From UHGV virus genome UHGV-0874476: a DNA stretch of 13,335 nt. One strand, given 5' to 3'. The DNA is from a virus. The notes under the pieces were generated by a model. The model had not been told where the DNA came from. It worked only from the letters and a program-made list of their open reading frames with translations, and searched no databases. The translations under genes were made by a program, and so were the position numbers. How positions within the stretch are numbered: position 1 is the first letter of the stretch; each line of letters begins with the position of its first letter. Of the stretch, positions 2,181-9,213 are shown piece by piece.

Positions 2181-2214
2181 TAAAAGAAAAAGCACCGAGA
2201 TTTCTCTCAGTGCT
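2181..2214 (-). terminator. Rho-independent terminator-like hairpin on minus strand
   Basis: minus-strand RNA AGCACUGAGA-GAAA-UCUCGGUGCU (10-bp stem with one G-U, GNRA loop) followed by UUUUUCUUUUU; the G-U is a C-A mismatch on the plus strand, so the structure is strand-specific. Confidence 0.55.
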
Positions 2215-2274
2215 CACTTTATTCTTTCACGATACTATTATATCTTAAATTAGCGCCCCCTAGGAACTCACTTT

Positions 2275-2694: not shown

Positions 2695-4407
2695 CTAATA
2701 AGGGCTTCTTACAATTCGAGATTCTTTTCGTCCAAGTGTATCTTGTACACATTCAGCTAACATACTAAGCGAATCTATTCCGTCATCATGTAGCACTTTT
2801 GCCTTTGTTGTATAAGTACAAACATTCCCCATGAATAATCCGTAATCAGATTTTGGTGTATAAAGACTCGGATCTAAAAACAGACAATGTTTCTTAATCC
2901 AGTCTGCATTAACCAATATTTTTGTTTCCTTATTTGCCGTTGTATATTTCGTTTCAATGCTTGTCCGGCACTTTCCTTTAACCATCTTTTCAATGTTATC
3001 TGCGATTCGTCCTCCGGCTTGGTTCGACTCAAATCTTACTTTATGCGGATTATGCTCAATGATTATGTCTGCTGTTTTCCTGTCCAAAGTGTCGTAATCC
3101 GTGTTATCGTCAAATACTACTGCTGGAATATAGAAATCTTCGCCAAACTGATAAGCAATGGGTAATGACTCAAAGTCTGTTCCCTTATCTTTGGTATCAC
3201 ACACGCCCCATATAGCATCTGGTTCTCTATCCGGAAAAATAGTAAATTGCATTTGTTTCTCTGGTACTTGATCTTTTGAAAAGAAAAATCTTCTCAGCTC
3301 AGATGCAGGGAGAAGCAATCCTTCTCTTTCGATCGGTTGCTGCTGATATAAACAGTTGAAAGAAATATCATCCATGGACTCTTTAGCATCCATAAAATAT
3401 TTCTTAGAAAACCCATTTACAGTAAACATGAAGTTACTTTCTCCGTTTTCATCTAAAGCCGGAATTGCTATGAATTTAGCTTTTGGATTCCCTTCGTAAA
3501 GTTGTTGTAGCTTACCTATTGGATCATGTACCGACCACCTAGTCGCTATATAAATTTCTTTACACCCCTCTAATCGTCTGGAACGTAAATCATTGACAAC
3601 CTTTGTCCAAAGGGTTTCTAATCGGTTTTTGTTCAATGCCTCTTCGATACCAGATACAAGGTCATCGGCTGTAAGAAATCTATTACATCGGGTAGCACCT
3701 GTAAGGGAACCGTCTATAGAGCGGAATGTCCATGTCTTAAATCGTCCATTTCTTTCAAGATTTACAGTTGTTTCTTTCGCATTGGTATTGGTAAGCTGTA
3801 CTGTCGGGAAAATCTCATGCCATGTATATTCCACCGGATCGTTAATGATTTCAAGCACACCATCATAAAGGGAACGTGTCAAAATGCTACTATGTGCTGA
3901 TGAAAGGTTGAAATCGTTCGGAAACCATCCGCCCACAAGCGAAAGAAAGAAATCTTCAAGTGTGGATTTTCCACATCCGGGCGGAACGCTCAGCCCAAAT
4001 ATATCCAATTCATCATCCATTAAATCTTGCAGGCTCTGTATAATTTGATGTTTTACGAACACTTCCCGTCTTGGTTCATAAAATCTTTCTTTTGGAAGTC
4101 GATTCTTCTCTAAATAAAGTAGCCCGCTGTCTACCTGATAGTTTTGGGCTTCCAATAGTAAATACTTCCAGTACAAATCATCAAATTCTCCGCTGCCGGT
4201 CTGAGCCGCCATATAAGCAGCCATCTCATGTGCATACTTGCTGATTTTCATGGCGTAGTCCCGGACTTCCTTATTTTCAGAGAAGTCAAAATCTTCTCTC
4301 ATATTCAGAAGCAAATCCAGGCAATCCCTCTGGTTAACTTTGTTCTTCAATCCGTCATTTATAATTTGTTGGAATAGTCCTTTGTACCATTCCATAGTTC
4401 CTTCCAT
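2695..4407 (-). CDS. terL: phage terminase large subunit
   Basis: 570-aa ORF; Walker A-like PPGCGKST; C-terminal nuclease-like segment ending LHDDGIDSLSMLAE typical of terminase RNase H-like domains; AGGAGG SD upstream of ATG 4407. Confidence 0.88.
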   Translation of the reverse strand: MEGTMEWYKGLFQQIINDGLKNKVNQRDCLDLLLNMREDFDFSENKEVRDYAMKISKYAHEMAAYMAAQTGSGEFDDLYWKYLLLEAQNYQVDSGLLYLEKNRLPKERFYEPRREVFVKHQIIQSLQDLMDDELDIFGLSVPPGCGKSTLEDFFLSLVGGWFPNDFNLSSAHSSILTRSLYDGVLEIINDPVEYTWHEIFPTVQLTNTNAKETTVNLERNGRFKTWTFRSIDGSLTGATRCNRFLTADDLVSGIEEALNKNRLETLWTKVVNDLRSRRLEGCKEIYIATRWSVHDPIGKLQQLYEGNPKAKFIAIPALDENGESNFMFTVNGFSKKYFMDAKESMDDISFNCLYQQQPIEREGLLLPASELRRFFFSKDQVPEKQMQFTIFPDREPDAIWGVCDTKDKGTDFESLPIAYQFGEDFYIPAVVFDDNTDYDTLDRKTADIIIEHNPHKVRFESNQAGGRIADNIEKMVKGKCRTSIETKYTTANKETKILVNADWIKKHCLFLDPSLYTPKSDYGLFMGNVCTYTTKAKVLHDDGIDSLSMLAECVQDTLGRKESRIVRSPY

Positions 4408-7079: not shown

Positions 7080-7372
7080 TACTGTCCCACCCCAAAATGT
7101 TTCCGCAGCATTGCCAATTCATCGACTGCTTTCAGAAATGCTGTCCGCATATCGGTATACCGAATACAATCCTGCTGGTGCTGGTCTTGAAGGTCTTTGC
7201 AAATTCTTTCCAACTCTGCAATTCTGTACTTTTCTTCTTTTTCCACTTTCTTAATTTCAACAGATTCATAAACATCTTCTAGTTTTGATCTAAGAACTGC
7301 GTTTTCGTCAATAAGGTTTCTGATTTGTTCAATCATTTCCTGCTTTGTCATTTCTCTTACACAATCGCACAT
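7079..7372 (-). CDS. hypothetical coiled-coil protein (97 aa)
   Basis: ATG 7372 preceded by GAGG at 9 nt; heptad-like charged/hydrophobic pattern; first gene after the tRNA island. Confidence 0.6.
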   Translation of the reverse strand: MCDCVREMTKQEMIEQIRNLIDENAVLRSKLEDVYESVEIKKVEKEEKYRIAELERICKDLQDQHQQDCIRYTDMRTAFLKAVDELAMLRKHFGVGQ

Positions 7373-7400
7373 ATTTTTTACCTCACAAAATTATTTGAAA

Positions 7401-7426
7401 TGCGCGGGTGTGGATTTGCACCACAC
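7401..7426 (-). other. tRNA 3'-half-like remnant (T-arm-like hairpin GUGUGG-UGCAAAU-CCACAC plus CCCGCGCA tail); no matching 5' acceptor strand found
   Basis: plus-strand gtgtggatttgcaccacac; no complementary acceptor within 100 nt upstream on minus strand. Confidence 0.3.
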
Positions 7427-7557
7427 ATGATTTTCATTCCTACAAGTGTCCTCCGAATTATACATTCCCGACCACTATAAAATCTTATGTTTAAGCGTTT
7501 ACCTGTTCCGCCACCGCACATCACGCATTGATTACCGGCTCAATACGCAAAGCCTAA

Positions 7558-7671
7558 TTGCGACAGGTGGATTTGAACCACCGCTTATACCAACGCCAGA
7601 CCTTCCCAGATTTCAATGGTAGCTAGTCATATACTTTCTGTTGGGTGTGAGGATTTGAACCTCTGTCGCAA
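7558..7671 (-). other. composite tRNA-like structured element: 9-bp terminal inverted repeat enclosing two T-arm-like hairpins with identical UUCAAAU loops
   Basis: minus strand UUGCGACAG...CUGUCGCAA (perfect 9-bp complement); hairpins GAGG-UUCAAAU-CCUC and GGUGG-UUCAAAU-CCACC; neither hairpin has a canonical tRNA body around it. Confidence 0.35.
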
Positions 7672-7722
7672 ACCACGAAAGCTTTCTTCACAACAACAAC
7701 CGGATAAAATCATTGCTGTGCA

Positions 7723-7799
7723 TTGCCCTGAGTGGATTCGAACCACCGACAGCACGCCAGTTCATGTGTACGCTGCTCTACCAACTGAGCTACAGGGCA
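7723..7799 (-). tRNA. tRNA-like gene with canonical acceptor, D-arm and T-arm but non-canonical anticodon arm; identity undetermined, possibly pseudo-tRNA
   Basis: minus strand UGCCCUG-UA-GCUC-AGUUGGUA-GAGC ... GGUGG-UUCGAAU-CCACU-CAGGGCA-A; the 26 nt between D-arm and T-arm cannot form a 5-bp stem with 7-nt loop. Confidence 0.45.
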
Positions 7800-7912
7800 A
7801 ACCTTTTGATTTCGTAAACCGCCTATAATCCTCGGAAATCGTCAGAACTCCATGACGTTCCTTACCTCCAAACTAGGTTTTTAAAGCGCTTTATGGCTTT
7901 TACTTCCGCTTT

Positions 7913-7970
7913 GACATATGGATTGCTCGTCAGCAAATTACGCTCCGGATACCAGAGATCACCATATGTC
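7913..7970 (-). other. 58-nt three-way-junction structured element immediately 3' of tRNA-Thr
   Basis: minus strand GACAUAUGG...CCAUAUGUC (9-bp closing stem) enclosing hairpins CUCUGG-UAU-CCGGAG (one G-U) and UUGCU-GACG-AGCAA. Confidence 0.35.
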
Positions 7971-7972
7971 AG

Positions 7973-8044
7973 AGCCAGAAACCGGACTCGAACCGACAAT
8001 ATCAGCATTACAAGTACTGCGTTCTACCATTGAACTATTCTGGC
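7973..8044 (-). tRNA. tRNA-Thr (anticodon UGU)
   Basis: hand-folded cloverleaf: acceptor GCCAGAA/UUCUGGC, U8 A9, D-stem GUUC/GAAC, anticodon stem CAGUA/UGCUG, loop CUUGUAA, T-arm GUCGG-UUCGAGU-CCGGU, 72 nt. Confidence 0.88.
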
Positions 8045-8296
8045 TACTTAATAAACACCAGTAAACGCTATGCGAAAACCGGATTCCTTTTCTGAACCTG
8101 TCAGATAGGTAAAATATTCCCTTATAAAACCACTTGTCCAACTTATTTACCATACAGGTGTGGCACTAATAATTTACTTCCAGGAATCTTCCAGAATTAC
8201 CGACTACTGCTAATCACGGTCTATGGTCTTATCTCTCTGGAGAAGTTTTTTGCAAGGTTCTTCAGCAGGTATAAGTTGCCTTGCTATATGGAAAAG

Positions 8297-8369
8297 TACA
8301 GGGAGTAGGAGTCGAACCCACAATCGCTGGATATAAGCCAGGTGCAACGTACCGCATCACCTTCCCTGC
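8297..8369 (-). tRNA. probable tRNA, anticodon tentatively UAU (Ile, decoding AUA); atypical A8, weak D-stem, G1-U72
   Basis: acceptor GCAGGGA/UCCCUGU, anticodon stem CUGG/CCAG with loop CUUAUAU, T-arm GUGGG-UUCGACU-CCUAC, 73 nt. Confidence 0.5.
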
Positions 8370-8533
8370 AAAACGGCATTTCTGCCGTTAGCAACATGTT
8401 TTTCGTGCTATGCCTAAGCGCTAGGAAATATTTTCTATTTCCAAAACCTCCCGGCACTTGTGACGCACCTTTAATCAGCTCTCCGCTAGGAGGTTCTAGT
8501 ATAAAGGAGGTCTATCAAAAAAATGATAACAAA

Positions 8534-8605
8534 CGGGGATTGTAGGATTCGAACCTACGTATGCAAGAGTCAAAATCTTGTGTGTTTCCTCTTCACCAAA
8601 TCCCT
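8534..8605 (-). tRNA. tRNA-Gln (anticodon UUG)
   Basis: hand-folded cloverleaf: acceptor AGGGAUU/AAUCCCC (A1-C72 mismatch), 3-bp D-stem, anticodon stem CAAGA/UCUUG, loop UUUUGAC, T-arm GUAGG-UUCGAAU-CCUAC, discriminator G, 72 nt. Confidence 0.88.
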
Positions 8606-9098
8606 ATACTACGTTGCGATAAAAAGTACGATTCATAATATTTATAATTGTTGTTTTTGAAACCCCATAAACTTCCGCGATTCTCCTAGTTGATGTTTTC
8701 CCTTTTTGTTCTCTTATAAAACGAACATCTTTTTCCGTAAGTTTTCTGTTATTATATAATTCATTTTTTTTGCTTTCTTCAATCAAATGATATTTTGTAT
8801 TTTCCTTTGGTGTTACCCACTCTAAATTATCAACATAAGGATTTTTCTTATTTTCGTCTTTATGATGCACTATTTTCTTATTGTCATGATTCGGAATAAA
8901 CGTTTCAGCAACCGCCTTGTGAACTCTAATTCCTTTCACTGCTCCTCTTTTTCCAAGCGGTATATACACCATTAAGTAACCAGCCTTATTAACATTAAAT
9001 TTGTATATACGATTTGTCTTTAAATTTTTAATATTTCCATTTGTATCAATAACAAAATCCGCATATTCAATTCCCCCATATACCATAGTTTTAAACAT
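8604..9098 (-). CDS. HNH homing endonuclease-like protein (N-terminal NUMOD4-like segment, HNH_3-like core, C-terminal helix-turn-helix)
   Basis: motifs GIEYADFVIDTNGNIKNL and HHKDENKKNPYVDNLEWVTPKENTKYH; ATG 9098 preceded by AAAGGAG; stop codon overlaps first nucleotides of tRNA-Gln; ORF-track start 9173 is TTG without RBS. Confidence 0.75.
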   Translation of the reverse strand: MFKTMVYGGIEYADFVIDTNGNIKNLKTNRIYKFNVNKAGYLMVYIPLGKRGAVKGIRVHKAVAETFIPNHDNKKIVHHKDENKKNPYVDNLEWVTPKENTKYHLIEESKKNELYNNRKLTEKDVRFIREQKGKTSTRRIAEVYGVSKTTIINIMNRTFYRNVV

Positions 9099-9213
9099 AA
9101 TGCCACATTCTCCTTTACTGCGGATATTCCCAGTTTTATTCTCCGAATACCCCATTGTGCTTTTTCTTTGCAACCATTCTCTTCTGAACTCATAGCCTGA
9201 CAGGGCAAAATTT

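Follow-up and report, generated by a model that had tools for sequence, protein, structure and literature searches.

The transfer RNA (tRNA) cluster of phage T4 is co-transcribed with stable RNAs that are not tRNAs (species 1 and 2, rnaC/rnaD), and these are excised by the tRNA-processing enzymes of the host. In the gammaherpesvirus MHV68, the TMERs consist of a tRNA-like unit followed by stem-loops that are released by RNase Z; these are eukaryotic Pol III transcripts that feed the microRNA pathway, and we know of no equivalent in bacteria. The GOLLD and ROOL RNAs are phage encoded, are “often near tRNA islands,” and sometimes GOLLD linkers hold tRNAs (PMC12286853). Lak megaphages have over-long tRNAs with “enigmatic introns,” one of these inserts being itself tRNA-like (Devoto et al. 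2019, PMC6784885). Here, we consider a small hairpin at positions 7524-7547 of a 13,335-nucleotide (nt) stretch of phage DNA (UHGV-0874476, referred to below as the window); the hairpin lies in a tRNA array on the minus strand (7373-8606). An earlier note, made from the letters alone, had drawn attention to this hairpin and to the strand on which it folds. Beyond that note, we find that the hairpin is part of a longer conserved motif, and that the “spacers” beside it are unannotated tRNA-like elements. Our preferred interpretation, to which we assign a probability of roughly 0.5, is that the hairpin is a conserved spacer structure of the minus strand that acts in cis on the processing or stability of the array RNA.

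The features at the center of this interpretation are as follows.

7524-7547, minus strand: hairpin, 8-bp stem (7547-7540 with 7531-7524), loop GCCGGUAA (7539-7532), one U·G pair

7519-7559, minus strand: 41-nt motif with the hairpin as its core, A-GGCU-UUG-stem-GCC-N2-4-UAA-stem-UG (covariance model R1, 63.3 bits)

7558-7670, minus strand: tRNA-like element (a), 112-113 nt, acceptor-like stem UGCGACA (7670-7664) with UGUCGCA (7565-7559), from a custom scan

7400-7520, minus strand: tRNA-like element (b), 121 nt, acceptor-like stem UGUGCGG (7520-7514) with CCGCGCA (7407-7401), from sequence and fold

On the minus strand, positions 7547-7524 read CGUAUUGA-GCCGGUAA-UCAAUGCG, with an 8-nt loop. 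On the plus strand, the counterpart of the single U·G pair (U7545·G7526) is a C·A mismatch, which is why the hairpin folds weakly there: −2.5 kcal/mol (z −0.56, with 50 of 200 dinucleotide shuffles as good), versus −8.1 kcal/mol (z −3.24, 1 of 200 shuffles) on the minus strand. With two flanking bases added per side, the values are −3.6 (z −0.6) and −10.9 (z −3.2), respectively. The stem and its strand-dependent pair are thus as the earlier note had described them, by sequence and by folding, and the plus strand does not fold equally well or better once shuffling is taken into account. It should be noted that 13 kb offers many windows in which a lone 24-nt hairpin could reach z of about −3, so that such a value is no rarity; it is the homologs that provide the real support.

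The motif occurs in the related loci L081, L082, L084, L085, L161, L259, and L314, and weakly in L245. It also occurs in the Mammaliicoccus/Staphylococcus phages phi6255, phi116, phi127, phi36, and PG-2021_4/67/68, and in four isolate-derived uncultivated virus genomes (UViGs). Instances beyond the first relatives (the IMG/VR contigs L259 and L314, the UViGs, and the phages) were recovered with a looser pattern scan and blast. The looser pattern had 40 matches in IMG/VR, six of them real (L259, L314, and the four isolate UViGs) and the rest chance; exact scans of IMG/VR with the strict hairpin pattern, and with the pattern of the (a) T arm, gave no match. One of two genome-scan matches, in L162 (a metagenome-assembled genome [MAG] of Desulfobacterales), was set aside as chance, being within a coding region. 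Known instances score 56-63 bits with R1, which finds nothing in about 200 other related loci except the weak variant in L245, whose changes keep the helix. No Rfam family matches the motif in the window and L285 (E ≤10) or in L322 (E ≤1); there are just chance-level matches to small RNAs (sRNAs) at the adjacent terminator.

Given that hairpins of this z value arise by chance in 13 kb, the hairpin could be accidental, or the motif could be a nonfunctional relic, that is, a decayed piece of tRNA or spacer carried along by descent and module shuffling. Most of its sequence is common to close relatives, so the invariant pairs are uninformative; the middle pair is often broken, and the array gains and loses modules. 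However, the motif is present with helix-preserving changes in the Mammaliicoccus/Staphylococcus phages, where the surroundings are unrelated, and it has been retained while both of its neighbors were exchanged (upstream, either the odd tRNA described below or (a); downstream, either (b) or a mini tRNA-like element). We consider a relic or chance origin distinctly unlikely.

Across ten distinct sequences, the helix of the motif extends to 10-11 bp, and 90% of its cells are paired on the gene strand. Three pairs are changed on both sides (C-G/U-A; U-A/C-G; and G-U/G-C/U-A), and RNAalifold recovers the same helix. The covariation score was reached in 12 of 500 column shuffles, a control that is not a probability, and slid controls are 21%-48% paired. 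Overall, we regard the statistical support for the helix, as judged from these alignments, as moderate, not strong. The pair of the 7545·7526 type is U·G in seven of the ten aligned homologs and C-G in three, and thus the G·U is not universal. G·U accounts for 19 of the 110 helix cells in total, which leaves just 73.6% pairing on the complementary strand.

This asymmetry bears on whether the site could act as DNA, either as an imperfect palindrome bound by a protein or as a recombination hot spot for the exchange of tRNA-like modules. Indeed, the motif coincides with the very junctions at which relatives have different modules upstream and downstream. However, the G·U cells correspond to A·C mismatches in the complement, which makes for a poor palindrome, the conserved flank and loop are not palindromic, and the adjacent genes in the window include neither a recombinase nor a regulator. 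A DNA-level role seems very improbable to us.

More than simple spacer lies in the 349 nt from the odd tRNA to the next open reading frame (ORF) (7721-7373). The acceptor-type stem of element (a) is perfect over 7 bp and is accompanied by a canonical T arm (GGUGG-UUCAAAU-CCACC) but by no D arm; a second T-arm-like hairpin directly follows the 5′ acceptor strand. It is nearly identical in L081 and L084. In element (b), a D-arm-like hairpin and a T-like arm of 6 bp (GUGUGG-UGCAAAU-CCACAC, 7426-7408) are accompanied by a central part of some 62 nt, and the element ends about 27 nt ahead of the start codon of the ORF at 7372-7079. The hairpin occupies the 37-nt gap between these elements, 10 nt past the discriminator base of (a) and 3 nt ahead of (b). 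We call (a) and (b) tRNA-like because both combine a 7-bp acceptor stem with a T arm (T-loop UUCRANY). For tRNAs proper we used the gathering threshold of Rfam RF00005 (29 bits); this model has no match over 7400-7670 even at E ≤10, default ARAGORN makes no call, and the one Rfam match to (a) is tRNA-Sec (16 bits, E 6.4). The folds of (a) and (b) contain no anticodon arm of 5 bp with a 7-nt loop; their central parts are 60-80 nt.

A homolog of (b) in L314, reached solely via the hairpin motif, keeps the acceptor stem (with two one-sided changes), the D-like arm, and the T arm around an unrelated central part. Searches with (b) and with 7912-7801 using nhmmer gave no match in any locus at E ≤0.01, and with (b) there was none at E ≤1 in 282 loci (L314 not yet among them). 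We do not accept the interpretation of (a) as tRNA-Pro(GGG) with a 34-nt intron, or that of 8295-8145 as tRNA-Arg(CCU) with a 76-nt intron; both are below the default ARAGORN threshold and without Rfam support, and in neither case can an anticodon arm be drawn. For (b), ARAGORN makes no call even at the lowered threshold with introns allowed. A partial tRNA copy of the attP type, as a source of orphan T arms, was set aside because there is no integrase in the window.

Because the hairpin precedes a protein-coding gene, termination or attenuation of transcription at the end of the tRNA array must be weighed. A real intrinsic terminator in the window allows a comparison.

2181-2215, minus strand: intrinsic terminator between the portal module and a 135-amino-acid (aa) ORF downstream of the large terminase gene

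It has a 10-11-bp stem followed by the U tract UUUUUCUUUU, was called by the terminator scan, and has the makeup of an intrinsic terminator. Relatives keep it with compensatory changes in the inner stem and with the U·G retained. The strand bias noted earlier at 2181-2214 is confirmed (−15.4 kcal/mol on the minus strand vs. −10.7 on the plus strand). In L285 the motif is followed by a terminator, which could be taken to favor such a role for the motif itself. However, the hairpin at 7524-7547 is followed by UGAUGUG and not by a U tract, its stem is AU-rich and reaches about −8 kcal/mol (vs. −15.4 plus a U tract at 2181-2215), and the terminator scan makes no call there. An intrinsic terminator combines a G+C-rich stem-loop with an immediate U tract; given that the tract is missing, we do not read the hairpin as a terminator, and consider this the least credible of the alternatives.

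The array to which these elements belong was annotated with ARAGORN and Rfam, which place four tRNAs between 8606 and 7722.

8533-8606, minus strand: tRNA-Gln(UUG), the first gene of the array (ARAGORN; Rfam, 59.6 bits)

8296-8369, minus strand: tRNA-Ile(UAU) (ARAGORN; Rfam, 33.3 bits)

7972-8044, minus strand: tRNA-Thr(UGU) (ARAGORN; Rfam, 65.6 bits)

7722-7800, minus strand: the odd tRNA (ARAGORN; Rfam), with conserved acceptor, D, and T arms

Odd tRNA in relatives: L001 2819-2899; L002 7760-7831; L081 603-674; L082 3659-3731; L084 1105-1176; L085 2152-2224; L161 7511-7583

Standard tools thus see four tRNAs in this 1.2-kb stretch, although no fewer than six tRNA-type units are present, along with several spacers of conserved structure. 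As read from the sequence, none of the tRNAs encodes CCA. The terminator scan found no terminator-like site on the minus strand within the array. The spacers between the tRNAs are 160-350 nt and contain several distinct conserved structures, whereas those of the T4 cluster are a few nucleotides. In 161 terminase-related loci plus the window (also the basis of the statistics on tRNA trailers below), the distance to the next called tRNA has a median of 233 nt, a very large spacing for a tRNA cluster in a phage.

The odd tRNA has an anticodon-arm core of 18 nt, versus 13 nt in the tRNA model, and ARAGORN reports it with either a 4-base anticodon (gaac) or as Phe(GAA) with a 3-nt “intron”; in relatives, the reported “anticodons” are of two or four bases. 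The arm varies from about 13 to 22 nt, and also in sequence, among near-identical phages, and changes in the acceptor stem are compensatory.

Blast and nhmmer comparisons reveal the array as a mosaic of modules that are gained and lost across relatives. In L081 and L084 the odd tRNA is followed by a 13-bp hairpin (7689-7720 in the window), (a), and a hairpin of the 7524-7547 type. In L082, L085, and L161 the hairpin comes directly after the odd tRNA and precedes a tRNA-like element of another, mini type; inspection of the sequences shows covariation in its three helices. In L314 the odd tRNA and the hairpin are accompanied by the (b) homolog, and L001 has none of these modules downstream of the odd tRNA. 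A 98-nt tRNA-type gene located 5 nt upstream of tRNA-Ile in L001 (2151-2248) and L002 (7127-7224; Rfam tRNA, 38 bits), and not in the window, is a further example of such gain and loss.

Other features of the tRNAs in these phages deserve mention. The anticodons form an unusual set: Ile(UAU) is present in the window, relatives have very many CAU tRNAs (106 calls in the first 80 loci), and Gln(UUG) heads nearly every array among relatives. There is also a family of over-long tRNA-type elements of 113-119 nt (L003 3489-3606, L014 2338-2455, L019 4700-4814, L074 3445-3561, and others; Rfam tRNA, 46-55 bits), with a canonical D arm and a conserved, internally paired insert of about 45 nt in the anticodon arm. 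In our reading, removal of the insert after position 29 would leave a perfect anticodon arm of the Val(UAC) type. A second over-long family (136-137 nt) occurs in 13 loci (e.g., L014 4342-4477). The over-long elements occur on the gene strand only. Some long candidates from the acceptor/T-arm scan, such as the classes of 108 nt and 174 nt, were excluded as artefacts (a normal tRNA plus a chance upstream complement).

The array contains three further spacer structures.

7689-7720, minus strand: 13-bp G·U-rich hairpin directly after the odd tRNA

7913-7970, minus strand: three-helix 58-nt element beginning 2 nt after tRNA-Thr

8189-8242, minus strand: 54-nt motif in spacer 2 (after tRNA-Ile), P1 8242-8235 with 8196-8189, P2 8220-8217 with 8202-8199

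The hairpin at 7689-7720 has z −3.9 on the minus strand and +0.5 on the plus strand; in three sequences it is 97% paired (67% on the opposite strand), with two compensatory pairs. The element at 7913-7970 had been cited earlier for the same strand bias, and it does fold better on the minus strand (−20.8 kcal/mol, z −3.85, vs. −16.6, z −2.8). Five sequences are 94% paired with three compensatory pairs, and the covariation score was reached in 0 of 500 shuffles, so that the compensatory changes are clearly above controls. Within it, CUGACGAG resembles a hammerhead core by eye, a candidate that we rejected because the remaining core is missing. The 54-nt motif is likewise a clear case of conserved structure: 20 distinct sequences are 99.2% paired with four covarying pairs and an invariant G·U (0 of 500 shuffles). 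Its loops are near-invariant (AGAU(R)AGACCA and GUGAG.AG...UAGU), and its pattern occurs in at least 120 IMG/VR contigs and in no fewer than 149 related loci of gut phages; Rfam contains nothing that matches it. For the hairpin at 7524-7547, 7913-7970, and the spacer-2 motif, Rfam gave no match to hammerhead, pistol, twister, hatchet, preQ1, or other small ribozymes and riboswitches. Incidentally, spacer 1 (8370-8532, minus strand) is significantly more stable than its shuffles (z −3.3 on the minus strand and −2.1 on the plus strand) and is 79%-87% conserved in relatives; it ends with a hairpin (ACGGCA-GAA-UGCCGU) and UUUU directly before tRNA-Ile.

The same tendency is seen family-wide. The 45 nt after called tRNAs fold at a median of −9.6 kcal/mol, versus −4.7 kcal/mol for random windows of the same strand (Mann-Whitney p 3e-47), and these trailers are more stable than the reverse complements of the same sequences (Wilcoxon p 8e-7). 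The broader claim of the earlier note, that the spacers are structured as RNA of the minus strand, is well supported by the trailers, by the motif (90% paired vs. 73.6%), by 7689-7720 (97% vs. 67%), and by the element at 7913-7970 and the spacer-2 motif. Transcription of the spacers from the minus strand is what we infer from the orientation of the tRNAs and ORFs together with the strand-asymmetric pairing. Given that all four tRNAs and nearly all ORFs are on that strand, it would be expected without any argument from G·U pairs, and the reading of a minus-strand RNA, although supported, is nearly self-evident once the tRNAs are recognized.

We envisage that the array (Gln, Ile, Thr, odd tRNA, (a), and (b)) would be transcribed as one minus-strand precursor with the downstream genes, given the gene orientation and the lack of a terminator-like site inside it. 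Host RNase P would cut on the 5′ side of each tRNA or tRNA-like unit, by analogy with acceptor/T-arm substrates, and RNase Z, given that CCA is encoded in none of the units, would cut on the 3′ side. The motif would remain as a compact, self-folded spacer between (a) and (b), where it could act in cis by stopping the neighboring tRNA-like folds from mispairing and by defining or protecting processing boundaries.

Several observations weigh against this scheme. The covariation is modest, six of the eight core pairs are invariant among close relatives, and the middle stem pair is unpaired in five of ten sequences. In L259 and the Staphylococcaceae phages, the motif lacks recognizable tRNA-like flanks, and in L285 (an isolate-derived UViG with the Staphylococcaceae-type version of the motif) a terminator follows it; a role purely between tRNAs therefore cannot cover all cases. 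The motif is also absent from about 190 more distant relatives that keep their tRNA arrays and is thus not required for array processing. Finally, parts of its loop and flank (GGCU, GCC, and UAAUC) are conserved as sequence, which would fit better with a specific binding partner or a tertiary fold than with a generic insulator.

These points lead to the main rival, in which the motif is a small RNA or aptamer, a hairpin or pseudoknot of about 37 nt freed by processing of its flanks and acting in trans on a protein, as a decoy, or with a ligand. The sequence elements just listed are kept between unrelated phage groups, some instances of the motif lack tRNA-like flanks (one has a terminator of its own), and its patchy occurrence across genera is like that of an accessory module. 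A possible H-type pseudoknot between GGCU (7554-7551) and AGCC (7540-7537) is sterically plausible, 100% pairable, and nearly invariant. However, the pseudoknot pairs do not covary, the RNA would be very small, no partner, target, or ligand can be named, and the motif belongs to no Rfam family. We think a trans-acting excised RNA unlikely, although less so than a relic, a DNA site, or a terminator.

The cis-acting spacer thus remains our preferred interpretation, and a wider idea that we hold with little confidence goes beyond it. The tRNA-like “shells” (acceptor, D, and T arms, with the anticodon arm replaced) might serve as scaffolds with which fast-evolving small RNAs are expressed, processed, and stabilized, the 41-nt and 54-nt motifs being excised products. 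As part of this doubtful picture, the array would be an RNA “toolkit,” for example of decoys or inhibitors against host defenses that target tRNAs or are RNA guided.

In phi6255 (L322, PV389083.1), the motif (about 69,797-69,838 of PV389083.1) stands at the start of a stretch of some 1.3 kb, which has two tRNAs at its end (L322 2430-3900). This stretch is annotated with only “hypothetical proteins” of 30-50 aa, and one of its tRNAs (83 nt) is unannotated. It is probably noncoding RNA and not genes. It also contains UAGUCGG...GAGAGAAUAAGAACCA, reminiscent of the loops of the 54-nt motif.

As for the wider setting, the window is recognizable as phage DNA from an SPP1-type portal (540-2033), a large terminase (2695-4407), and two HNH endonucleases. 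Nearly all ORFs are on the minus strand, and the GC skew is steadily negative along the window. Relatives of the terminase are abundant in human-gut viromes and metagenomes, on contigs of about 75 kb. An array closely related to the present one (L161, JAPFCU010000079.1) is inside a 229,663-bp contig of a Blautia sp. MAG, which hints at Blautia as the host genus and at an integrated (prophage) state. Blastn of 7300-8700 against GenBank phages returned short tRNA-like matches only. The HNH endonuclease gene at 8604-9173 (minus strand), with a C-terminal helix-turn-helix, ends at the first base of tRNA-Gln. L001 appears to be without an HNH gene at this position, as read from the sequence upstream of its tRNA-Gln; if that holds, the gene would resemble a homing endonuclease that had inserted at the array's edge.

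That the spacers fold on the minus strand is what any annotator would assume, and by itself this matters little. More useful are the two spacer motifs without an Rfam family, the 41-nt motif and the strongly covarying 54-nt motif, as well as the finding, in a much smaller and very abundant group of gut phages, of tRNA-like shells whose long or hypervariable inserts recall the Lak “introns.” The presence of the 41-nt motif in cultivable Mammaliicoccus phages would make such questions experimentally approachable.

How does the locus compare with known systems? The stable RNAs of T4 and the TMERs of MHV68, in which a tRNA-processing enzyme sets the end of a hairpin directly after a tRNA-like unit, offer analogies of function. 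Like intrinsic terminators, the hairpin is a stem-loop with a G·U pair on the transcribed strand, but it differs in its weak, AU-rich stem and in having no U tract. Like GOLLD and ROOL, the spacer structures are found in the tRNA clusters of phages or prophages, on the tRNA strand, with conserved secondary structure and no known function. However, those RNAs are about 600-800 nt or more, ornate, and multimeric, whereas the present motifs are 41 and 54 nt; Rfam models of GOLLD and ROOL gave no match in the window plus nine relatives (gathering score), and none at E ≤10 in 7300-8700. The likeness to Lak phages is that, in both, tRNA genes of gut phages contain conserved inserts and exceed the length that bacterial tRNA finders can handle. 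The tRNA-like insert of Lak resembles (a), with its T-arm-like hairpin nested after the 5′ acceptor strand, and the over-long Lak tRNAs resemble the odd tRNA and the 113-119-nt family as well. The Lak phages are another lineage with a genome of 540 kb, whereas the present group consists of siphovirus-like gut phages of about 75 kb. Also, (a) and (b) are without a recognizable anticodon arm, and the hairpin at 7524-7547 lies between such elements, not within one. The hairpin is, in sum, a small conserved structure of an already-known sort in the transcript of a phage tRNA array.

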